The translations under genes and the position numbers were made by a program. Positions 18,839 to 54,823 of a stretch of 64,000 nt of DNA are shown here, one piece after another. The notes beneath the pieces are model-generated. The model searched no databases. It was given only the letters and a program-made list of their open reading frames with translations, and was not told the DNA's origin. Source of the DNA: Thermodesulfobacteriota bacterium (lineage in GTDB: Bacteria > Desulfobacterota > Desulfobulbia > Desulfobulbales > Desulfurivibrionaceae); NCBI GenBank assembly GCA_040757055.1, contig JBFLXY010000011.1, forward strand, positions 19,099 through 83,098, given 5' to 3'. How positions within the stretch are numbered: position 1 is the stretch's first letter; each line of letters begins with the position of its first letter.

Positions 18839-19762
18839 TCAATGGGGATTCTCTGCCAGGGTGCTCCAGAGGATGCCTTCCAGCAGGCCGGCATCGCTCA
18901 CGGTGAGCGTGGCGGCGCTGAGTTTGGTGAGCAGGTGTTCGTAGATGAGGGCGCCGGCCAGCAGGATCTCGCCGCGGCCCTGGTCAAGGCCGGGCAGCTG
19001 GTTGCGGCCCTGGGCGTCGAGCCGGGCCAGTTGCCCGGTCAGTTCCCGGAGGCGGGCCAGAGGCAGGCGATGGCCCTGGACCTTGCTTTCGTCGTAGGTA
19101 ATGAGTCCCAGGTCCAGGGCGGCCAGGGCGGTGGCGGTGCCGCCGCTGCCCACGAGCAGGGTGCCGGGGGGCAGGAAGGGCAGGATGGATTCGCTGACGG
19201 CCGCAGCGATGGCGGTGCGGACCGCGGCCAGCGACTCGGGAGTCGGCGGCGGGGTGGGCGTCAGGAAGCGCTCGGTGAGGCTGACCGTCCCGATGGCAAG
19301 GCTCGTTACTCCGCCCTCCCCAATGAGTTCGCTGCTGCCGCCGCCCACATCCGCCACCAGCAGATGGGCGTCCCCGCCCACGGCCTGACGGACGCCGGCT
19401 AGGGCCAGGGCCGCCTCGGTATGGCCGTCGATCACCTCGATGGGCTGGCCAAGAAGGCGGGCGGCCGGGGCGAGGAATTCGTCGCGGTTGGCGGCCGTCC
19501 GCAGGGCATGGGTGGCGCAGGCCCGGAGCCGTTGGGGGTGGTGTGCGTCGAGCAGGGCGGCAAAGCGGGCCAGGGCCTCAAGGCCGCGGGCCATGGCCTC
19601 CTGGTCCAGGCGTCCGGTGGTGTGCAGCCCTTGCCCGAGGCGGACGGTGATCAGCTTCTTAACCAGCGGCTGCATGGCACCGTTGGGCCGGAGAGTCGCG
19701 ATGAGCAGGCGGAAGCTGTTGGAACCCAGGTCGATGGCCGCATGCGGCGGGGGTTTTGTCAT
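18839..19762 (-). CDS. Ppx/GppA-family phosphatase (N-terminal actin-like domains only)
   Basis: [14 protein letters not shown]...DVGGGSSEL...[10 protein letters not shown]. Confidence 0.8.
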
Positions 19763-30320: not shown

Positions 30321-31601
30321 TCAGCCGCGCAGGGCGGCCCATTCGGCCAGAAAAATCCGGTGCTCCTCAAAGGATGCCTGCTGCGCCTCTTCGCGCAAAA
30401 AATCGACCTCTTCCAGGTGATCATGGACCAGGCCGTAGAGGTCGGCGTCCAGTTTTCCGCCTTTGCTCATGCTCTCCATGGCCCGCAGGGTGCCGCGCCC
30501 GCTCATTGCCGCCCGATAGGGCCGCATCTCGGTGAGGGCGGTGAAGGTGTCGGCCACCGCCATGAGCCGGGCGCCGGGGGGGAGGCGGTCGCCGGCAAGG
30601 CGGAAAGGATAGCCGGTGCCGTCCAGCCGTTCGTGGTGCAGGGCGGCCCACTGGCTGATTTCCTCAAAGCCCGGCACCTGGCTCAAAATCCGCTGTGAAA
30701 AATAGGGGTGTTTGCGGATGGCGTAAAAATCCTCCCGGGAAAGGGGGCGGGTCTTTTCGAGAATCTCCTGGGGCACCACGAATTTGCCGATGTCGTGGAG
30801 CAAACCGGCAATCTCCATGCGCTGGCAGACGGGCGGGGAAAAACCGGCCTTGCCCGCCAGCCAGTGGGCCACCGCCGCCACGCCGCTGGAGTGGGTGGCG
30901 GTGAAGCGGCTGCGGAAATCGATGAGCTGGCGGAACATGCGGGCCAGGTCGAGGAGGTTTTCCTGGCGGGCATCCGTTACGTCCGTCGGCAATCCGGTCA
31001 TGATCCCTTCACAGGGGCGGGATGAGACGAGATCGAACCAGAAGGCCTCGCTGGCAGCCACCTCCCTGAAGGCGGCCACCGCCTCCGGCAGGAAGGTGGT
31101 GCCGCTGCGCTCTTCGATTTGTGCCAGGATGCGCCCGGGCTGGCCGAGGATTTCCTCTTGCGGCCGGATCAGTATCGCCACGCGGTCAGCCAGGTGCAGC
31201 AGGTGGGCGGCGCGGGGCACCGGTTCCCCTGCGTGCCCGGCGCCGGCACCTTGGTCCCATGGCAGATGGTGGAAGCGGACCAGTCTGGCGAGAGGGGCAA
31301 GGGGCGGGAATTTTTTGAGCAGCAGGTAGCCTGGCAGGGTGTGCTCTTCGGGGGTGGCCATGTCGAACTGGAGCACATCGAGACGGCTTGCCAGCGACAG
31401 CCCGCCGATATCGTGGATGAGGCCGGCCAGGGTGAGATCGGTGAGTTCCTGGCGGCTCAGTCCGGCACTCCTGCCGAGCTGGAAGGCGATGCGGGCGACC
31501 TGCCTGTGATGATTGACCAGGGCCGGACTGATGAGGTCCAGGGCCTCGGAGATTGCGATCAGCAGGGGGGAGATGTCGAGGGGAATGGTCGCGGCGGGCA
31601 T
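30321..31601 (-). CDS. HD-GYP-domain phosphodiesterase with an additional degenerate N-terminal HD-like domain
   Basis: HDIGK...HHERLDGTGYP in the C-terminal domain; LIHDIGG in the N-terminal domain. The start was trimmed to MPAATIPL. Confidence 0.8.
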   Translation of the reverse strand: MPAATIPLDISPLLIAISEALDLISPALVNHHRQVARIAFQLGRSAGLSRQELTDLTLAGLIHDIGGLSLASRLDVLQFDMATPEEHTLPGYLLLKKFPPLAPLARLVRFHHLPWDQGAGAGHAGEPVPRAAHLLHLADRVAILIRPQEEILGQPGRILAQIEERSGTTFLPEAVAAFREVAASEAFWFDLVSSRPCEGIMTGLPTDVTDARQENLLDLARMFRQLIDFRSRFTATHSSGVAAVAHWLAGKAGFSPPVCQRMEIAGLLHDIGKFVVPQEILEKTRPLSREDFYAIRKHPYFSQRILSQVPGFEEISQWAALHHERLDGTGYPFRLAGDRLPPGARLMAVADTFTALTEMRPYRAAMSGRGTLRAMESMSKGGKLDADLYGLVHDHLEEVDFLREEAQQASFEEHRIFLAEWAALRG

Positions 31602-31896
31602 GGTGCTCCTTGATGGCGGGTGGCCTTTCCTGCCAGCATACCGGATTGCCGTTGGATTGCAAACCAGGATGCGGCCAGGCTGCATGGCTCCTCCATGCCT
31701 TCCATGGCGACCGGTCCGGCCGTGTGGCGTTTTGCGGATTTTTTTTGCGCCGTGGGCGCCAAATGATTTTGAGTCGGCCAGCGAAATTTGCTAGGCTGAT
31801 TGCATCGCGCGGCCGTTGCTGCAGAGGCCGGAGGTGCGGGCCTTTTTAAAGGGGAGGCCGCGTGCGGATTCCTGACAATCTAAAGGTGGTGACATT

Positions 31897-32490
31897 ATGA
31901 TGTTTCGTGCCGTTGGTCTTCTCATGGTCGTGCTGTGCTGCGGTTGCGCTGCGAATATTCCTCAGCCCATGGTGATCGAGCGGGATGGCATTGATGCCAT
32001 TGTGCTTACCGATGACCACAAGGTTTCCTACATCAAGCAGCAGGGGCATATCGACCGGATTTGCGCGGCGGTGGAGGCCGATGCGGTGGCCACGGACGAA
32101 TCGGGGTTTTCTTTGGGATTGTCTGCCCTGGGCAAGTCGGAACGGATCGGGGAGCATTCCGGAAGGGGGGAACTCTCTCTGGGGGGCAGGGATCCGCTGG
32201 TGCTCATTGCCCGCGAGTTTCTCTACCGGGCCTGCGAGATGACCAACAACCTCAACAGCAACGAGGAAAAAACCATCCAAGTCTACCAGATGTTCCTCGA
32301 TACCCTGGAGAAAATTGCCGAGACGCATCCTGCCTATGGAACAGCGCCGGCGGCAGCCGACGAACCGGAGCAGAAGCAGCGCAAGAAGGCAAAGAAGAAA
32401 AAGAACAAATGGGATGATGACGACAAAGACGATGACGACGACAACGATAACGACAAAGATGATGATGACGAAGACAAGGATGACAAGTGA
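31897..32490 (+). CDS. Probable lipoprotein of unknown function with a Lys-block/poly-Asp C-terminal tail
   Basis: Signal peptide MMFRAVGLLMVVLCCGC. Tail KQRKKAKKKKNKWDDDDKDDDDDNDNDKDDDDEDKDDK. AAGGTGG RBS. GC is lower than in neighbouring genes. Confidence 0.6.
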   Translation: MMFRAVGLLMVVLCCGCAANIPQPMVIERDGIDAIVLTDDHKVSYIKQQGHIDRICAAVEADAVATDESGFSLGLSALGKSERIGEHSGRGELSLGGRDPLVLIAREFLYRACEMTNNLNSNEEKTIQVYQMFLDTLEKIAETHPAYGTAPAAADEPEQKQRKKAKKKKNKWDDDDKDDDDDNDNDKDDDDEDKDDK

Positions 32491-32566
32491 TCTGCTGGTT
32501 GCCTGACGTGTGGCGCTTTTTGGAGAATACCATCACTCAATTAATATTGTCGGAGGAGGCTGAACA

Positions 32567-33748
32567 ATGAAAGTGCATTGGTCTGCAAGCGGAGTCGTGA
32601 TGCTGATGCTTCTGGCTGCGGGCAACGCCGAGGCGAAATGGCCAAAGGATTGCGGCAACGAAGGGCAGAAGACCTGCACCGGCCCTGCCCATTATGGCTG
32701 CAAGGACGACCTGGAGAAGTGCGATATGCCGGGGGCCAGGGATGTCTGCAGGAAGAAGGGGGAGTGCCCGTCTGAGTCGCGCAACAAGCACGACTGTCCG
32801 GATTGCGGCCATGATGGCCAGGAGCCCTGCCTCTTTAAAAAGTACTGCCACATGTGTGTTGATGGTCATCACGTCTCCCCGCAGACCGGGAAGTGCACGA
32901 AAACCGAAGGGCCGGTGGACACGATTGAATCCATGCTGCGAAAGGTGGACGGAGACCTGACCAAGGCGGAAAAGGACTGCCGCAAATTCGGAGAAAAGAT
33001 TGAAAATGGCTTGAACGACAAGGGGAAGGAAAAACTGCGGGATCTTCTTGATGCCGCCTCGGTGTCCAAGAAACTGGTGGACGACTCCCTGTACTATGGC
33101 GAACTCGCGGCCACCTGTTATGAAGAGCAGTTCAACGGCATTGTCTGCGGCGCGATCCCCTGGGTCAAGGGCTACAACAAGCTGGCGATCCGGCTCCTGA
33201 ACACGGATCATGACGACGATTTCAGGGACGTTACGAAGGAGGTGGGGAAAGACGCGGTCGAAATGGGGAAGAAATATGTCCAGTATTTCATTCACGGGGA
33301 TGCCTGTAAATACATGGTCGATCCGGTTGCCCGCGCCATGTGCGCCAGTGTCTATACCATGGTGGATGTTGCCAGGGATCCGGTGAACTGCGCAGTCAAC
33401 ACCGTCAAGGATTTGGCTGAAAAGAACAAGCAGGGTTCGGGGCAGAAGAAAAAGCCGGAGAAGGCTGATGTCAAAGATTTTGTCGCCAGCAATTGCTATA
33501 CGGTGGGGGTAATCTCGTTTACCCTGGCTGCCGACCAGGCATTGGCCGCGTTGACGGCGGAAACCGGGGAGGCAGTCGAGCTGCCGAAGGATGCCAAGGC
33601 GGTTCTCAAGGCGGTGAAGACGATTGCCAAGGCAAAGATCAAGTTGGAGCAGGGAGCCGAGGCCGCTGACAAGTTTGATGATTCCAAGGCAAAGCAGGTT
33701 ATGGAGCAGCACAAGAGTTGCGACGGCGTTCTGAAGTATCTCGATTGA
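32567..33748 (+). CDS. Secreted cysteine-rich protein of unknown function (393 aa)
   Basis: Signal peptide ending AGNAEA. There are 12 Cys in the first ~90 mature residues and 8 more in a helical-looking C-terminal part. Strong GGAGGAGG RBS. I recognise no family. Confidence 0.65.
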   Translation: MKVHWSASGVVMLMLLAAGNAEAKWPKDCGNEGQKTCTGPAHYGCKDDLEKCDMPGARDVCRKKGECPSESRNKHDCPDCGHDGQEPCLFKKYCHMCVDGHHVSPQTGKCTKTEGPVDTIESMLRKVDGDLTKAEKDCRKFGEKIENGLNDKGKEKLRDLLDAASVSKKLVDDSLYYGELAATCYEEQFNGIVCGAIPWVKGYNKLAIRLLNTDHDDDFRDVTKEVGKDAVEMGKKYVQYFIHGDACKYMVDPVARAMCASVYTMVDVARDPVNCAVNTVKDLAEKNKQGSGQKKKPEKADVKDFVASNCYTVGVISFTLAADQALAALTAETGEAVELPKDAKAVLKAVKTIAKAKIKLEQGAEAADKFDDSKAKQVMEQHKSCDGVLKYLD

Positions 33749-33807
33749 GTGTTTCCTGGCCAGGGGGAGGATGGCTTCCCCCTGGCTGGGGAAGGGGCGG
33801 AAGAAGG

Positions 33808-34239
33808 ATGACGGTCTTGCTGCGCCGTTGGCTGATGGTTTCTTGCGCTGTCCCGCTTCTGTGCGGATGCGTGGCGCCCGGACAGCCGCGGCCCGTTGGC
33901 GGCGACCGGGATTCCCACGGCTGCATCGGTTCGGCCGGGTATGTCTGGTGCGAGGCGAAGCAGAAATGCATCCGGGTCTGGGAGGAGCCGTGTGAGCCGG
34001 GAGACAAGATCACGGCCTGCTACGGCTGCGAAGGCCTTGGCCCCATTACCGTCCAGTATTTCCCTGGCGATGGCGCGTCCATCCTCGTGAATGGCAAGGC
34101 GTACCGGCTTGAACGGGCGATTTCCGCCTCCGGCGCTCGCTACGAAGGGGAAAATATCATGATCTGGGACAAGGGCGGCACGGCGCGTCTTGTTCTGGAT
34201 GGCGGGGAGTATTCCTGCCGGGTGAGCGCCTGTCCATAG
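33808..34239 (+). CDS. MliC-family (membrane-bound lysozyme inhibitor of C-type lysozyme) lipoprotein with an extra Cys-containing N-terminal module
   Basis: Lipobox LLCGC. [24 protein letters not shown] matches E. coli MliC's [24 protein letters not shown] almost exactly. The start was trimmed to MTVLLRR. Confidence 0.75.
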   Translation: [143 protein letters not shown]

Positions 34240-34260
34240 GCGTGTCCCAGCTGTTTTGCT

Positions 34261-35091
34261 TCAGGATTCCTTCTGGCAACGGGGGCAGAAAAAGGTGGCC
34301 CGCCCGCCGAGGACACGGCGTCGGATGGTCTGCCGGCAGCGGGGGCACGGCTTTCCGTCCCGGCCATAGACGGCCAGTTCCAGCTGGAAATAGCCGGGCT
34401 TGCCGCTGGCGTTCTCGTAGTCCGAGATGGTGGAGCCGCCCATGGCGATGGCCTTTGTGAGAATGGCGCGACTTGCCGTGACAATGCGTTGCCATTCCCT
34501 CTTCGGCACCCCCCTGGCCGGGGTTTGCGGATGGATGCCCGCGGCAAAGAGCGTTTCGTTGGCATAGATGTTTCCCAGCCCCACCACCACGGAGTTGTCC
34601 ATCAGGAAGCTCTTCACGGCTACGCTTCTTCGTCCGGCCTTTCCCTGCAGATAGTCTGCGGTAAATGCCGCGGAAAAGGGCTCCGGCCCGAGTTCGGCAA
34701 AGGGATCGACGGTGCGCAGCTCCTCCGGCGAAAAGAGTTCCACAAAGCCGAAGCGCCGTACATCGTGGAAGCGCATTTCCTTGCCGTTGTCGAGGAGGAA
34801 GTGGAGGTGGTCGTGCTTTCTGCGCGGGGTTGCCGCGGGAAAGAGTGCGATCTTGCCCGTCATTCCGAGGTGAAAGACCATGAGGGCCCTGCTGCTCAAA
34901 TGGACGAGGATGTACTTGGCCCGGCGCGTCACCCTGAGGATGGCGGCGCCTTTGGCAAATTCGTCCATCTTTGCGCGCGGGAAGGGCTTGCGCAGTTTCT
35001 TGTGGCTGGTGGCAATGGCAAGGACCGTCCGCCCCGTCACCAGGGGGGCAAGCCCCTGGCAGACCACCTCGACCTCGGGCAATTCCGGCAT
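34261..35091 (-). CDS. mutM: Formamidopyrimidine-DNA glycosylase
   Basis: MPELPEVE N-terminus and C-terminal zinc finger CPRCRQ...FFCPRCQ. Confidence 0.9.
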   Translation of the reverse strand: MPELPEVEVVCQGLAPLVTGRTVLAIATSHKKLRKPFPRAKMDEFAKGAAILRVTRRAKYILVHLSSRALMVFHLGMTGKIALFPAATPRRKHDHLHFLLDNGKEMRFHDVRRFGFVELFSPEELRTVDPFAELGPEPFSAAFTADYLQGKAGRRSVAVKSFLMDNSVVVGLGNIYANETLFAAGIHPQTPARGVPKREWQRIVTASRAILTKAIAMGGSTISDYENASGKPGYFQLELAVYGRDGKPCPRCRQTIRRRVLGGRATFFCPRCQKES

Positions 35092-35096
35092 GCCGG

Positions 35097-35792
35097 CTAC
35101 CTGGAGGCCAAGGCGTTCGGGCTGATCTTCCGCACCACCTTGGGGATGAAGAAGGAGGCGACAAAGAGGGCCAGCGACAGCAGGGTTTTCCAGCCCAGGA
35201 GTTGCGTCCAGTCCCCCGATTTCCACACCTCGGCCAGGGTGGCGAAGAAGAAGGTGAGGACAAAGCCGCCGGCGATGATGCCGAAGAAGGTGCCGAAGAA
35301 GTAGTCGCGGAAGGTGACCCGGGTGAGCCCCATGCCGAAGTTGAGCGGGGTGAAGGGGAAGAAGATCAGCCGCAGGTAAAGGGTGGTGGCAAAGCCGTTT
35401 GCCGCGATCTTGTCGTCGTAGGCCTTGAGCCGGTCGCCGATGAGGGAGGCGGCGAAATCACGGCCCAGGTAACGGCCGATGAAAAAGGCGGCCGAGGCGC
35501 CAATGAGCGCGCCGATTTCGTTGTAGAGAAAGCCGTAGAGGGTGCCGAAGAGAACGGCGCCGATGCCGGTGAAGAGGGTGGCGGGCAGAAAGAGGCAGAT
35601 GCCCACGGCATAGACGAGGACGAAGACCAGCGGGCCCCAGGGGCCGCTTTCCCGGACAAAGGCCTCGATCCGTTCCGGTGCGATCCATTCCCGGAGGTCG
35701 GTGGCGCGGAAGAGCCAGACCGCCGTCGCCAGGAAGAGGAGGAAGAGCACAGCCTTGATCGCGCCTTTGCGGGAATTCGCTGCCTGCTTCAT
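35097..35792 (-). CDS. TVP38/TMEM64 (DedA-superfamily) membrane protein
   Basis: GPWGPLVFVLVYAVGICLFLPATLFTGIGAVLFG...FFIGRYLGRDF. Its ATG overlaps the stop of the upstream 1070-aa gene (ATGA). Confidence 0.8.
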   Translation of the reverse strand: MKQAANSRKGAIKAVLFLLFLATAVWLFRATDLREWIAPERIEAFVRESGPWGPLVFVLVYAVGICLFLPATLFTGIGAVLFGTLYGFLYNEIGALIGASAAFFIGRYLGRDFAASLIGDRLKAYDDKIAANGFATTLYLRLIFFPFTPLNFGMGLTRVTFRDYFFGTFFGIIAGGFVLTFFFATLAEVWKSGDWTQLLGWKTLLSLALFVASFFIPKVVRKISPNALASR

Positions 35793-38700
35793 GCGCTGCT
35801 CCGCTGGTTCTGGTTGGCCGCCCACAGGGGGCAGAGATGCCGGAGGCACTCCCTGTTCTGCGCCTGCTGCCGGCAGCGGATCGGGAATTCGGCCAGGAGG
35901 GGGATGGGCAGGAGTTCCTGCGAAAGCCGCGCCGCTTCCTGCAGGGCGGTGACACTTTCCCGCTGACAGCAACGGGCGCCGGTGGTTTCCGCGATGCGGC
36001 CGAGCACCCGGGCGGCGGCCTGCTGCGCGAGCTGCCGGGCCTCGGGGGTGAGCGGGGTGGCATTGAGTAGGACGCTCATGCCGATGCCCACGCCGATGGC
36101 TGCCCCGCAAATGCCCCAGAAACCGCAGACCCCGCCCGGCACCTTGCTGCCCCGCTCGATGGCGGCGAGGATGGTTTCCCGGCCGATGTTGCCGCCCCGG
36201 TTGCGGTAGGTGGCGACCATGACGCCAGGCACCAGGGCATGGTGCTCCGGCCCATGGAGCGGAAAGGCCGGATGCTGCCGGATCTGCTGCAAAAGGGCGA
36301 GCATGTCGGTCTCCGTCGATTCGGTGCAGCGCAGCCGGATAATGGAGAGACCGTCGCGCTGGTGGCAATCGTCGCAGATGAAGTGGCCCTGGGCGCAGAC
36401 GCTGTGGGTGGTGCGGGTGCCGCCGCAGTAATGGCAGGACGCGGTGCCGGGCTGGGCCAGGTAGGTGAGTTCGTTGCCGCAGACCATGCAGCCGGCGGCA
36501 TGGCGTACTGGCGTGGTCGCCGGGAAGGGCAGGATTTTGGGGGCGACGGTTTCCGGCGGCGTGGCGCAGCAACCGGTCGCGGACTCAGTCGCCTCTCCTG
36601 GCGTGCTGCAGCAGGCGTTGGCCATGGCGATATTGGTCACCGCGCCTGTTTCGTCGAGCAGCAGCACCGAATCGTCGAGCTCTTTGGCATCGGCCAGCGG
36701 GATGGCGATGCGCTGTCCCTTGACCAGCGTGATGCCGCTCTCGCTGACCACGGCGGCAAAGGGGCCGCGATAGATTGCCTCAGCCGTGGCGGTTGTTGCC
36801 GGTTTCCAGGCGCAGTAGGTGAGGGAGTAAAACTGGACGCCGTCCACCAGCCGGTAGGGAAAGCGTTTGATGAGCCGGGCATTGCCAAAGCTCGCGGCCC
36901 GCAGCATGGCCATGAGTTCCTCCTGCTGCATGGCGCCGCCCAGACATTCGCCGCGGAACCGCGCGTTGTTCTTGATGGCCACCGGGATCGCCCCGTCGGT
37001 GACGATGTCGGAAATCACCAGCCGGCCGCCGGGGTTGAGCACCCGGAAGATCTCGTGAAAGGTGCGCCGCTTGTCCGGCGAGAGATTGATGACGCAGTTG
37101 GAGATCACCACGTCGGCACTGGCATCCGCCAGCGGCAGGGCCTCCAGAAAACCTTTCCTGAATTCGAGATTGTCGTAGCCGAGTCGCTGGCGCACCTCGG
37201 CCTGGGAGGCGCGGGCCAGCGAGAGCATCTCTTCGGTCATGTCGATGCCGCAGACCCGGCCCTGCGGGCCCACCTTTTCGGCGGCGAGGAAACACTCCAC
37301 TCCGCTGCCGCTGCCGAGATCGACCAGGGTCTCTCCGGCCTTGAGGCCGGCATCGCTCACCGGGCTGCCGCAGCCGTACGAGCGCTGGCGGGAGGCCAGG
37401 GGAATGAAGTGGGCCGCGGCCTGTTCCGGGGCAAAGGGATTGACGATGTTGGTGTTGGCCTGCACTGCGGCCTGGGCATAAAATTCCCGCACCGGGCGGT
37501 GTCCGTGGTCGCCGGCCAGGGATACCACGCAGTTGCAGTGGGTGAGGGCGACCTCCCGGCCGTCCGGGCAGTCGTGGCGCACGTCGCCCATGCGGAGCAG
37601 CAGTTCGCCGTCATCCGGGACCGGATACTGCCGTGCCTGCGCGGCGATGAGCCAGAGGGCCAGATCGGCATACATATCCACGTAGGGATCGTGGCCGGTG
37701 AAGGCCCCGCCGGCTAGGTAGCTGTGGTCGAGGTCGTGACCGCCGGTAAGGAAGCCGCAGGGGTTGGCCCGGAGCCCGGCGTTGTCGATGTGCGAGGCCC
37801 GGCGGATGCGGTCGAGCACCGGGCTGTGGCGCCAGGCTTGTTCGAGGCCCTCTGTCACCGGCCCGCAGGCGAGTTCCGCGACCCCCACCAGGGCGGGCGA
37901 GGGGTAGACCATGGAGTCCGGCCCGATGGCCAGGGATTCCCATCCGGCGTTGCTGCCGTCGTGACGGGTGCCGGGCGAGCTGAAGACCTGTCCCTTGAGG
38001 GCCTCGATGTTGTCGATGGCGACCCCCAGTTTCTCGGCCTCACCGTGGGCCGCCAGCAGCACCGGCAGAATCTCTGCCGGCGCAACAAACTGCGCCAGAG
38101 TGCCCTTGCCCCGCACGAAATGCCAGAGCAGGTGGATGTTCTTCACCCCGTGGTCCGCGGCCAGGCTGACCAGGGCCGGCAAATCGGGGAGATTGCCGCG
38201 GTTGACCGCCACCGAGAGGGTGGTCTGGATGCCCTCGGCGCGCAGAAGGCGCAGGCTGGCAAGCAGCCGCTGGAAGGTGCCGGGGCCGCGCAGATGGTCG
38301 TGGCTCTGCTCCAGGCCGTCGAGGCTCAACTGGAGGTGGAGCCGCTCGCTGGGAAGTTTTCTGAGGGTCGCCAGGTGCTCGCCCAGCAGCAGGCCGTTGG
38401 TGAGTACCACCGCATGAGCCCCGGGATTGGCGAGCACATCGGCGAGCAGGGCCGGGAAATCCGGATAGACAAAGGGTTCGCCGCCGGTGAAATAGAAGAG
38501 GGTGCAGCCCAGGTCCGTTGCCTCGGCCATGGACCGGCGCAGGATCTCCGGCGCCAGGGCCGTCTTTTCCGCCGGCGAGGCGGCAAAAAGGCAGTGGCGG
38601 CAGGCGAGGTTGCACTGGTTGGTGAGGTGGAACCAGCATTCCTTGAGGGTATTCAGGGTGAGGGCGTGGTGGCGGCCTGCATAGGGGGGGGGCGCGCCCC

Positions 38701-39001
38701 GGTCCAACTGGGCGTACAGCTGTTCCATGGCCAGCAGGGTCGCGGCCAGGGGCTGGTCATCCGGAGAACGGCGGGCGGCCTCGTCGAGGCTTTCGGCAGC
38801 CTGCATGGCCTGGAGCAGCCGGTCGGCCCCGGGGCCGGGCACGGCCCAATCCGGTTTTTCCGGGTGGAGGTAGATGGGGCAGCCTTGCCAGCTATGGCGC
38901 TGCCAGTGGGGAAGCAAGCCCATGGGAAACCCGCGCGAAGATTTTGTGGTTCCGCCCCGGTTGCGGGGCGCACTTGCTGCACCATAATGATCGCCGGCCA
39001 T
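35789..39001 (-). CDS. Multidomain protein: radical-SAM domain, ArsM/AS3MT-type SAM methyltransferase (with its C-terminal domain), and a Cys-rich C-terminal domain
   Basis: rSAM domain: [14 protein letters not shown]...FTGGEPF (residues ~120-300). Methyltransferase: [37 protein letters not shown], and CC pairs at 797-798 and 811-812 (residues ~505-815). C-terminal domain: CMVCG...CHYCG...HFICDDCH...CC...C (residues ~836-1060). The start is uncertain between M1 and M27. Confidence 0.8.
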
Positions 39002-52790: not shown

Positions 52791-53099
52791 GACGGCCTCC
52801 TTCGTGTCGGGATGCGGGACAAGGGTGTGCTCCCATCTTGGCACAGCGAAGGCGGGGCGTCAAATGGAAAGCGGGGCGGGAGGATGCCTGTCTGACAGGC
52901 CTTTTTCTGAGCCTTGCCCGAGGGCGGAAGCGGGCGGCGGCCCCGGCCGGAAGGAATTTGCTGAAATCACCCCAAAGGGCCGGATTGGGCGATCCGGAGG
53001 GACGGCAGAAGGCGTTTTTGCGGTTTTGTGCCGAAATGCCGTTGTTTTTCTCTGCGCACGAAACGGCCTTGTCTGTCAAGGGAATAAAAAAAAGAAGGG

Positions 53100-53482: not shown

Positions 53483-54823
53483 ATGTACTGGCAGGATGTG
53501 AGAGAGGTATTGCGTCGTACCCTACCCGAAAGTGTCTTTGCCTTGTGGATCGAGCCGTTGCAGTGCCGTCAGGCGGATCGCCAGGCAGTGGAGCTGGCCG
53601 GGCCGGACCGCTTCTTCTGTTCCTGGGTAGCGGACAACTATCAGAAGGAGATTGAGGCCGCTCTGGTGGAGGCCGGATATGCCGGGGTGGCGGTGCGTTT
53701 TGCCGTAGGCTCCGGCGAGGCGGATCGGGGCGGGAATATGCCTGCCGCCCATGGCGAGCAGCTGCGGTTGCCGGCCATGCCCGAGGGACGCTCCCATGTG
53801 CGGACGCTCCATCCGCGCTACACCTTCGACGAGTTCATGGTGGGCGACTCCAACGCCCTGGCTTTCTCTGCCTGCGAGGCCATTGCCAACGGCGATACCG
53901 CCGTCGGCCCCTGTGTCTTCATTCACAGCGGCACCGGACTCGGCAAGAGTCACCTTACCCATGCGGTGGCGCATCATCTCCTCAACCACTCGCCGAACCT
54001 GCGGCTGCACTATCTCACCACCCAGCAGCTCACCGCCGAGGTGGTGCGGCACATCAAGAACAATACCATGGAGCACTTCAAGGAGAGGTATCACCGCCAG
54101 TGCGACGTGCTCCTCATGGAGGACGTGCATGCCCTGGCCGGCCGGAGCAAGACCCAGGCCGAGCTGGCCGAGGCGGTGGACGTGCTCATGGAGGCAGGCC
54201 GCCGGATCATCTTCACCGGGGCCATGGCGCCACGGGACATCCCCAATGTCGATGTCGGCGTGCGCTCGCGCCTTTCCGCCGGGCTGATCACCTCCATCAA
54301 CCCGCCGGACCAGCGGACGCGGCGGCTGATCATCCAGCGCAAGGCCCGTTATCACAACCTCGCCCTCACCGATGAACTGACCGACTACCTGGCCGAGCAC
54401 GTCAAGGGCGACATCCGCCGGGTTGAGAGCGCCATCATCGGCCTCAAGGCCAAGACCAACCTGCTCAAGACCACCGCCACCCTGGAGATGGTCAAGGAGG
54501 TGGTGGCCGCCATCGTCGGCCAGCACCTGCGCCTTTCCTCGGCGGTGATCCGCGATTTCGTCGCCCGCCAGTTCCAGGTGCCGCTGGCGGAGTTGCAGTC
54601 CAAGTCGCGGAAAAAGTCGGTGGCCTTTCCGCGCCAGGTCGCCATGTTCCTGGCGCGGAAGCTGACCGACGAGGCGCTCTCCGACATCGGCAAGGCCATG
54701 AACCGCGACCACTCCACGGTGGTGCATTCCATCCGGGTGATCACCGAGGCCATCGCCCGGGACGGCAGCATCCGCGGTCAGATCGATCATCTTTCCGAAC
54801 GGATCATCAAGAAGTATCAGTAA
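53483..54823 (+). CDS. dnaA: Chromosomal replication initiator DnaA
   Basis: TFDEFMVGDSNALA...SGTGLGKSHL...REIEGAL-type region IRRVESAI... and a C-terminal DNA-binding domain (RQVAMFLARKLT...IGKAMNRDHSTVVH). Confidence 0.95.
   Translation: MYWQDVREVLRRTLPESVFALWIEPLQCRQADRQAVELAGPDRFFCSWVADNYQKEIEAALVEAGYAGVAVRFAVGSGEADRGGNMPAAHGEQLRLPAMPEGRSHVRTLHPRYTFDEFMVGDSNALAFSACEAIANGDTAVGPCVFIHSGTGLGKSHLTHAVAHHLLNHSPNLRLHYLTTQQLTAEVVRHIKNNTMEHFKERYHRQCDVLLMEDVHALAGRSKTQAELAEAVDVLMEAGRRIIFTGAMAPRDIPNVDVGVRSRLSAGLITSINPPDQRTRRLIIQRKARYHNLALTDELTDYLAEHVKGDIRRVESAIIGLKAKTNLLKTTATLEMVKEVVAAIVGQHLRLSSAVIRDFVARQFQVPLAELQSKSRKKSVAFPRQVAMFLARKLTDEALSDIGKAMNRDHSTVVHSIRVITEAIARDGSIRGQIDHLSERIIKKYQ

Follow-up and report, generated by a model that had tools for sequence, protein, structure and literature searches.

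Between an HD-GYP gene and mutM of a Thermodesulfobacteriota bacterium lie three consecutive genes, here called g1, g2 and g3, that encode only exported proteins, and the question arises whether they were acquired horizontally and what they might do together. The DNA analyzed, hereafter the window, is a stretch of 64,000 nucleotides (positions 19,099 to 83,098 of the forward strand of contig JBFLXY010000011.1, GenBank assembly GCA_040757055.1). A preliminary description of it had proposed that the block at 31686–34260 is a horizontally acquired accessory cassette. This proposal is supported by the composition of the block, by its presence or absence in sibling genomes and by the occurrence of the g1+g2 pair in unrelated organisms of low guanine-plus-cytosine (GC) content, and we regard a horizontally mobile accessory cassette as highly probable. 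The whole reading favored here, in which a fixed accessory cassette in a variable slot is also a module of envelope attack and defense, appears on balance probable.

Composition of the island

The island (31686–34260) has a GC content of 0.574, compared with a mean of 0.650 for the window. The lowest value of all 2,575-bp sliding windows, 0.5713 (start 31722), is found within it, only 0.3% of these sliding windows are as low as the island, and a 1-kb profile drops there to 0.549–0.579. The GC content at third codon positions (GC3) is 0.692, 0.723 and 0.757 for g1, g2 and g3, respectively, as against 0.851 ± 0.029 (minimum 0.768) for the 42 other genes of the window, corresponding to z-scores of −5.5, −4.4 and −3.3; the z-scores of the synonymous-codon log-likelihood are −2.2, −1.9 and −2.6. 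The preliminary description had judged by eye that the stretch from about 31.7 to 34.3 kb is less rich in GC and that its third positions are less biased towards G or C. Both impressions are borne out, and the clear difference from the background in the GC and codon statistics leaves the proposal unrefuted.

Distribution among sibling genomes and relatives

Four sibling genomes were compared: the window, L001 (a contig assembled from the public run SRR31560034) and two metagenome-assembled genomes (MAGs), L002 (MAG097) and L111 (SKS1.bin83). They form a tight, roughly equidistant group whose flanking proteins are 77–95% identical (77–88% for L111 and the window). The window and L001 share the arrangement mutM-[g3 g2 g1]-HD-GYP-bioF. 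L111 has mutM-HD-GYP-bioF, with 140 bp from mutM to the HD-GYP gene and no cassette, and in L002 the stop codons of mutM and bioF are 19 bp apart, with neither HD-GYP gene nor cassette. The HD-GYP gene thus stands directly beside mutM in L111, an outcome of the synteny comparison that favors an accessory cassette. Conservation of the three genes at this position across the lineage, which would speak against acquisition, was looked for; they are absent from L111, from L002 and from about 25 further genomes. These relatives have in common the gene order radical-SAM/methyltransferase, VTT, mutM, bioF, bioB, poly(A) polymerase and NMO, and their mutM-bioF arrangement contains neither the HD-GYP gene nor the cassette. 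Low GC3 of the cassette genes is kept in the window and L001 (0.65–0.76 versus 0.76–0.88 in the flanks), the values for L001 being 0.65–0.68 versus 0.76–0.87.

As had been described, the two flanking genes lie opposite to the cassette, on the minus strand; the further impression that they look like core genes does not hold for the HD-GYP gene. The HD-GYP gene (30321–31601) is absent from L002 and the approximately 25 relatives. It encodes a c-di-GMP phosphodiesterase-type protein of 426 residues with an N-terminal HD-like domain (Pfam HD) and an HD-GYP domain (Pfam HD_5, 164.5 bits), in which HHERLDGTGYP at residue 322 corresponds to the HHExxDGxGYP signature. The mutM gene (fpg; 34261–35091), identified from Pfam, from NCBIfam PRK01103 (331 bits) and from sequence identities, is a native flank, though dimorphic. 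MutM of the window is 83% identical to that of L002, a Thermodesulfobacteriota MAG, and 68–75% identical to those of Desulfurivibrionaceae/Desulfobulbaceae MAGs. Within the siblings a type A allele is found in the window and L002 (83% identical) and a type B allele in L001 and L111 (82%); identity between the two types is only 53–57%, while the neighboring genes are 77–95% identical. Type A is 70–75% identical to mutM of 25 further relatives (L003–L026, L030, L041). Among the four siblings, each mutM type is found both with and without the cassette, which points to recombination in the slot, and the dimorphism, judged from these identities, looks like xenologous replacement beside the cassette site. 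The mutM coordinates are 34261–35091 in the window, 11725–12552 in L001, 5039–5863 in L111 and 1178–1990 in L002; type A resembles the wider relatives (about 70%), and type B is without a close match among the fetched loci.

The mutM-bioF slot has other contents as well. Most relatives, with genomes of the Desulfurivibrionaceae type (L004–L025, L041; for instance L005, 10823–11351), show a mutM-bioF gap of about 0.5 kb of lower GC content (about 0.53–0.55) with a gene for a lipoprotein of 75–95 residues carrying an Ala/Pro-rich tail (MKSVKTTVA..LLSTGMIAC...). L029 has a 653-residue Kef-like antiporter instead of the small lipoprotein, and the gap in L028 measures 21 bp. On the far side of mutM, window positions 35789–39001 (minus strand) encode a 1070-residue radical SAM + Methyltransf_31 + DUF5714 fusion, which lies upstream of VTT-mutM in most relatives examined.

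Layout and boundaries

All three cassette genes are on the plus strand: g1 (31897–32490) encodes a 197-residue lipoprotein whose lipobox aligns with those of seven homologues, g2 (32567–33748) a Sec-exported Cys-rich protein of 393 residues, and g3 (33808–34239) an MliC-family lipoprotein of 143 residues recognized by Pfam PF09864. Signal peptides and lipoboxes were read by eye with a hydropathy check; they are of the lipoprotein type in g1 and g3 and of the Sec type in g2, in agreement with the preliminary description of three same-strand genes for exported proteins. The ribosome-binding sites that it had noted are represented by the RBS-like sequences GGTGG and GGAGGAGG before g1 and g2, respectively.

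The HD-GYP gene and the cassette are transcribed divergently from a single 295-bp region (31602–31896), delimited from the sequence and from the alignment of the window, L001 and L111. The approximately 90 bp next to the HD-GYP gene include a −35/−10-like block (TTGCAA-N17-TATGCT, about 31661–31633, minus strand) common to these three genomes. Similarity between the window and L111 upstream of the HD-GYP gene fades at about 31690, which marks the left junction; the region to the right of it, upstream of g1, is present only in cassette-bearing genomes. A sigma-70-like site on the plus strand at 31872–31901, the sole one in the g1 upstream region, was rejected as a promoter because it overlaps the g1 start codon. 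The right edge lies 21 bp from the mutM stop codon, this spacer (34240–34260) separating it from the convergent stop codon of g3. The island coordinates first proposed were therefore essentially exact. In L111 the mutM stop codon is followed directly by a GC-rich hairpin and then by the HD-GYP promoter region. Within the cassette, a repeat scan detected an inverted repeat with 17-nt arms and an 8-nt loop (33752–33793, plus strand) in the gap between the g2 stop and the g3 start, which could be an intra-operon hairpin.

The three cassette proteins

The N-terminus of g1 reads MMFRAVGLLMVVLCCGC followed by AAN, and the Cys of its lipobox coincides in the alignment with that of the L-x-G-C present in all homologues. 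A conserved core of about 130 residues, including the pair Cys56/Cys113, is followed by a Lys-rich segment and then by a poly-Asp tail; residues 151–197, approximately, comprise 22 D/E and 13 K/R in 47 residues. The poly-Asp tail may bind divalent cations. Searches of Pfam, NCBIfam, PADLOC, PHROGs and PDB, including Pfam at E-values up to 10 and PDB profile searches, gave no match for g1, which represents an undescribed protein family. This family accounts for eight clusters among 5.8 billion proteins, and a further 54 loci were recovered from genome and metagenome contigs (SAR324, Micavibrio, Arcobacteraceae, Thiohalomonadaceae, Marinicella and others). All homologues have the lipobox and the two-Cys conserved core, and the acidic tail is usual. 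The sequence GFSLG at residue 70 was considered as a lipase GxSxG motif and rejected, as it is not conserved in the family.

The g2 signal peptide is of the Sec type and ends in LLAAGNAEA, followed by KWP. The N-terminal 90 residues or so contain 12 Cys in two repeats (DCGNEGQKTC and DCGHDGQEPC), visible as the internal DNA repeat D5; the C-terminal part of about 270 residues, predicted to be all-helical in a low-confidence model, has eight more Cys conserved in the four homologues. All 20 Cys are invariant among the four sequences at 42–86% identity. The three relatives are the L001 orthologue (86%), a protein from hydrothermal-vent and related metagenomes (43%) and a gene of a Micavibrio MAG (44%). 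The same databases as for g1 returned no match, including searches with the separate domains at Pfam E-values up to 10 and a PDB profile search, and g2 likewise represents an undescribed family. Only two clusters of the set of 5.8 billion belong to g2, and a search of 1.84 billion representatives added one further true homologue; with four lineages among the representative sequences, it is one of the rarest proteins that can be found. Two giant proteins matched in the exhaustive HMMER search (P0012, P0013) were dismissed as compositional artefacts due to low-complexity repeats, and the genes downstream of g1 in L082, L086 and L088 were rejected as g2 homologues on comparison.

The third protein matches Pfam PF09864 with an E-value of 1.2e-13 and 51.2 bits (cut-off 22 bits), residues 72–134 covering profile positions 1–64 of 67. 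By eye, its N-terminus has the lipobox L-C-G-C and a lipoprotein signal peptide as in the membrane-bound MliC subgroup. MliC proteins have a conserved SxSGAxY loop that inserts into the active site, followed by a (T/S)KG motif. In PDB matches including 3f6z, ISASGARY of g3 is aligned with ISASGAKY of P. aeruginosa and ISASGARY of E. coli, and W-D-K-G occupies the place of W-T-K-G in P. aeruginosa and W-S-K-G in E. coli. Homologues of g3 number 219. Between the signal peptide and the MliC domain lies a Cys-bearing module of about 35 residues (33880–33990, residues 25–62 approximately; GGDxDxHGCxxSAGYxWC..C.R.WEE.C) that has no match among Pfam models. Many small proteins, both from candidate-phylum bacteria (Kaiserbacteria, Zambryskibacteria, Peribacteria and similar) and from archaea of the Micrarchaeota, Woesearchaeota and Diapherotrites, contain this module at 70–90% identity, in some cases as a fusion with DUF333 or Kazal domains.

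Gene neighbors of g1 and g3 homologues

A g1 homologue lies immediately upstream of g2 in every lineage that has g2, namely the clade of the window, the Micavibrio MAG and the vent contig lineage. Elsewhere, the gene directly downstream of g1 homologues (37–68% identity) encodes an alpha/beta-hydrolase lipase of the DUF676/PGAP1 type (L082/L116, L099), phospholipase D (L083), PI-PLC-X (L097), a Zn-dependent phospholipase C (L124), a PLA2G12-like protein below the Pfam cut-off (L123), a DUF333 'putative hemolysin' (L127) or an EF-hand protein (L130). Two other families of Cys-rich exported proteins take the same place: the X86 type (L086–L088) and a family of 405 residues and 22 Cys. Nearly all of these partners carry Sec signal peptides, and lipolytic enzymes of four or five unrelated folds account for about six of approximately 21 dereplicated assessable g1 contexts, as counted from the listed loci. 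The 405-residue family, without a Pfam match, is found in L125, L126, L128 and L131–L133 (for example L128, 3253–6093), with a DsbA-like gene upstream in four of the six loci. Its profile–profile comparison with the g2 family yielded nothing (probability 0.8%).

The cassette architecture recurs with a different middle gene in L086/L087, where a gene of the X86 type stands between homologues of g1 (64%) and g3 (54%), the latter including the N-terminal module seen in g3. In another locus (L093, 1640–5854) an HD-GYP orthologue (49%), a cardiolipin-synthase-like phospholipase D, a gene resembling MliC (59% to g3) and a gene for an exported protein of the X86 type are clustered, so that the proximity of HD-GYP and MliC genes is not unique to the clade of the window; the L093 contig also encodes a cytochrome c3-type protein.

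Proposed function and its alternatives

From this gene neighborhood we infer that the cassette may be an envelope attack-and-defense module, perhaps co-regulated with the divergent HD-GYP gene. All three proteins would leave the cytoplasm through Sec, with g1 and g3 anchored in the envelope as lipoproteins. The secreted, disulfide-rich g2 would be the cargo and may act on membranes or the cell envelope, and g1 would be a generic accessory or self-protection partner of many unrelated exported enzymes that attack lipids. MliC-family proteins block lysozymes by filling the active-site cleft (PMC2267010), and g3 is predicted to be an inhibitor of this type, shielding peptidoglycan from lysozyme-like muramidases. 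The unit would be modular, combining a constant lipoprotein (g1), a variable exported cargo (here g2) and an optional MliC-type inhibitor (g3). This mechanism of effector, partner and inhibitor is put forward as a tentative suggestion. Since the g1 family accompanies unrelated enzyme folds, a common target (membrane, metal cofactor or localization) is likelier than fold-specific inhibition. A link to c-di-GMP through the divergent HD-GYP gene is possible; L111 keeps that gene without the cassette. A bolder extension would make g1 an envelope lipoprotein family with an acidic tail that acts as generic partner (self-protection, activation or cation sequestration) of Sec-exported membrane-attacking toxins spanning at least four or five unrelated phospholipase/lipase folds and three new disulfide-rich families, within antagonism or predation modules independent of type VI secretion (T6SS) and with g2 as a new toxin fold; we consider it speculative and rather doubtful.

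Several observations weigh against the proposed function, which amounts to guilt by association only. Neither g1 nor g2 has a recognizable domain, and g2 is without a lipase GxSxG or phospholipase D HxKxxxxD motif. The AlphaFold2 model of g1, from an alignment of eight sequences, has a predicted local distance difference test (pLDDT) score of 49.9 and is too poor to use; that of g2, from three sequences, is unusable at 34.9. More distant g1 homologues (at most 36% identity) adjoin housekeeping genes, and close g3 homologues occur alone. Finally, g3 reaches 20.6 and 19.2 bits against the NCBIfam equivalogs for the E. coli and Salmonella inhibitors, for which the cut-offs are 168 and 261; at the sequence level it is a member of the MliC/PliC family and not an orthologue of either inhibitor.

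Among the alternatives, a role in housekeeping envelope homeostasis survives best, though we think it unlikely. The expression of the cassette would be controlled by c-di-GMP, g3 would restrain the lytic transglycosylases of its own cell, and g1 and g2 would be structural or remodeling factors. The common 295-bp region from which the HD-GYP gene and the cassette diverge is consistent with this, as is L093, where the HD-GYP orthologue is located less than 2 kb from a g3 homologue and an exported Cys-rich protein. By contrast, L111 retains the HD-GYP gene without the cassette, no HD-GYP gene adjoins the g1+g2 pair in either the Micavibrio MAG or the vent contig, and g1 is partnered for the most part by degradative enzymes that carry signal peptides. 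As to the proposed target of g3, weak inhibition of MltA and MltB by MliC and Ivy of E. coli was observed in vitro, but the authors judged MliC to be only a weak inhibitor, unable to withstand overexpression of lytic transglycosylases in vivo (PMC10139938).

A classical toxin–immunity pair, with g2 as a novel exported lysozyme-like toxin that cleaves peptidoglycan, g3 as its cognate immunity protein and g1 as an unrelated second gene, is quite improbable. The inhibition of lysozymes at the active-site cleft by the MliC family (PMC2267010), the match of g3 to PDB 3f6z, the low-confidence all-helical prediction for the C-terminal domain of g2 and the position of g3-type genes after two exported Cys-rich types (g2 here, the X86 type in L086 and L093) would agree with it; however, the g1+g2 pairs in L089/L090 and in the Micavibrio MAG have no adjoining MliC gene, g3 homologues also occur without such a neighbor, and no lysozyme or SLT domain was detectable in g2 by Pfam and PDB searches.

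Origin, age and insertion route

Between the window and L001, the synonymous divergence (dS) is 0.60–1.05 for the cassette genes and 0.25–0.70 for the flanks. The ratio of nonsynonymous to synonymous divergence (dN/dS) is 0.09 for g1, 0.13 for g2 and 0.19 for g3, with 0.07–0.27 for the flanks; all three genes are real and under purifying selection. As the cassette is found in both genomes at normal synonymous divergence, it was present before these species split and is not recent. The ancestral junction would be mutM–bioF; in one genus-level clade the HD-GYP gene would have taken up this junction, and in two of the four sibling species g1-g2-g3 would separate the promoter of the HD-GYP gene from the stop codon of mutM.

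The same age and selection could be explained by three ancient, native genes repeatedly lost elsewhere, their low GC content resulting not from a foreign origin but from weakly selected codons and an unusual composition of amino acids; K, D, E and N abound in the proteins, native mutM also has a lowish GC3 (0.79, z = −2.1) and no mobility signature was found in the searches described below, yet this explanation is very unlikely, because the absence of the cassette from about 27 syntenic relatives, including all outgroups, requires many independent losses, GC3 is 3–5 standard deviations below the background independently of amino-acid content, and g1+g2 occur in the Micavibrio MAG (an alphaproteobacterium; locus GC 0.33) and the low-GC vent contig and in none of the other mutM-linked loci examined.

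The acquired and mobile cassette that we favor has nevertheless to be set against a number of points. Because the four sibling genomes are about equidistant, gain and loss are indistinguishable, a loss in L111 being no less parsimonious than a gain in the window and L001. Part of the low GC content is due to the Lys/Asp/Asn-rich proteins, whereas GC3 is independent of amino-acid content. No tRNA was detected in the 64 kb, the repeat scan gave nothing but short chance matches for flanking repeats, direct or inverted, and no mobility gene is present, all four genes of the variable block having other identities in Pfam and NCBIfam; the preliminary description had likewise seen no integrase, tRNA or flanking repeat. 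Searches of plasmids and phages with tblastn and scans of viral contigs yielded no plasmid, phage or viral relative, and Rfam gave no match at the island. The likeliest route of insertion is recombination in a hotspot, because mutM alongside exists in the clade as two alleles only 53–57% identical; this route accords with the dimorphism of mutM as well as with the varying occupants of the slot.

Other features of the window

A second islet of low GC content (0.50–0.55; GC3 0.61–0.66) is located at 198–1451 on the minus strand. It encodes a 280-residue protein with MqsA-like, HTH_3 and SocA/Panacea antitoxin-type domains and a 135-residue open reading frame without a Pfam match, and from these domains it is probably a toxin–antitoxin-like accessory pair. 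The dnaA gene (53483–54823, plus strand) is preceded by a 640-bp non-coding gap starting at 52845, with a GC content of about 0.555. This gap could be oriC; a box scan gave no clustering of E. coli-type DnaA boxes there, and the GC skew has no clear switch.

Comparison with known systems

The lipoproteins encoded with lipid-attacking T6SS effectors offer a first comparison: Tli3 is an outer-membrane lipoprotein (PMC9860674), and the Tli of Enterobacter cloacae both neutralizes and activates its Tle (PMC10294624). Tle-Tli pairs resemble the loci described here in that a lipoprotein gene lies beside the gene of a lipid-attacking enzyme and the taxonomic spread is patchy. As far as is known, a given Tli family serves a single Tle family, whereas the one g1 family accompanies at least five unrelated enzyme folds, g1 being upstream of its partner. 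Moreover, g2 and the enzymes encoded beside g1 bear Sec signal peptides, which T6SS effectors do not, g2 has neither GxSxG nor HxKxxxxD, and T6SS Pfam families are absent from the genes within 10 kb in L001.

Secreted lipases and phospholipases may also have accessory partners, as exemplified by the Lif foldase, PlcH-PlcR of P. aeruginosa and PhlA-PhlB of Serratia. These systems, too, pair the gene of a secreted lipolytic enzyme with that of a small partner protein, either exported or located in the envelope; g1 differs in having no sequence similarity to any Pfam family, in being a lipoprotein with a poly-Asp tail and in accompanying many enzyme folds. With the MliC/PliC family (PF09864, COG3895; E. 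coli YdhA, P. aeruginosa PA0867) g3 shares the domain and the lipoprotein signal peptide, and its ISASGARY and W-D-K-G segments align with the SxSGAxY loop and the following K-G of that family (PMC2267010). It differs by the additional N-terminal disulfide module of about 35 residues, absent from MliC of E. coli and P. aeruginosa, and the organism that carries it is a free-living anaerobe not obviously exposed to lysozyme of animals; inhibition by g3 is a prediction.

As a genomic object, the cassette is atypical in composition and patchy in presence, as integrase-mediated genomic islands are, but has no integrase or transposase, tRNA target or direct repeats. The closer likeness is to the flexible genomic islets without integrase found at conserved hotspots, where a short atypical block occupies a fixed site between conserved genes and the content of the slot varies: empty, a small lipoprotein gene, a Kef-type antiporter, HD-GYP, or HD-GYP with the cassette. 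There is no unusual difference from this category, to which the cassette belongs: the Desulfurivibrionaceae-like (Thermodesulfobacteriota) genome, of a sulfur-cycling genus, carries here a small accessory islet of an ordinary kind. Its content is less ordinary than its type, two of the three proteins matching no Pfam, NCBIfam or PDB entry. The g1 family is linked in a coherent and apparently unreported way with secreted lipases as well as with phospholipases C and D, possibly also A2. If exported lipolytic toxins in general turned out to have g1 as their partner, g1 would provide a genomic marker in the search for new Sec-dependent envelope-active effectors, g2 and two other Cys-rich families among them, and would widen the idea of effector and immunity beyond contact-dependent secretion systems.

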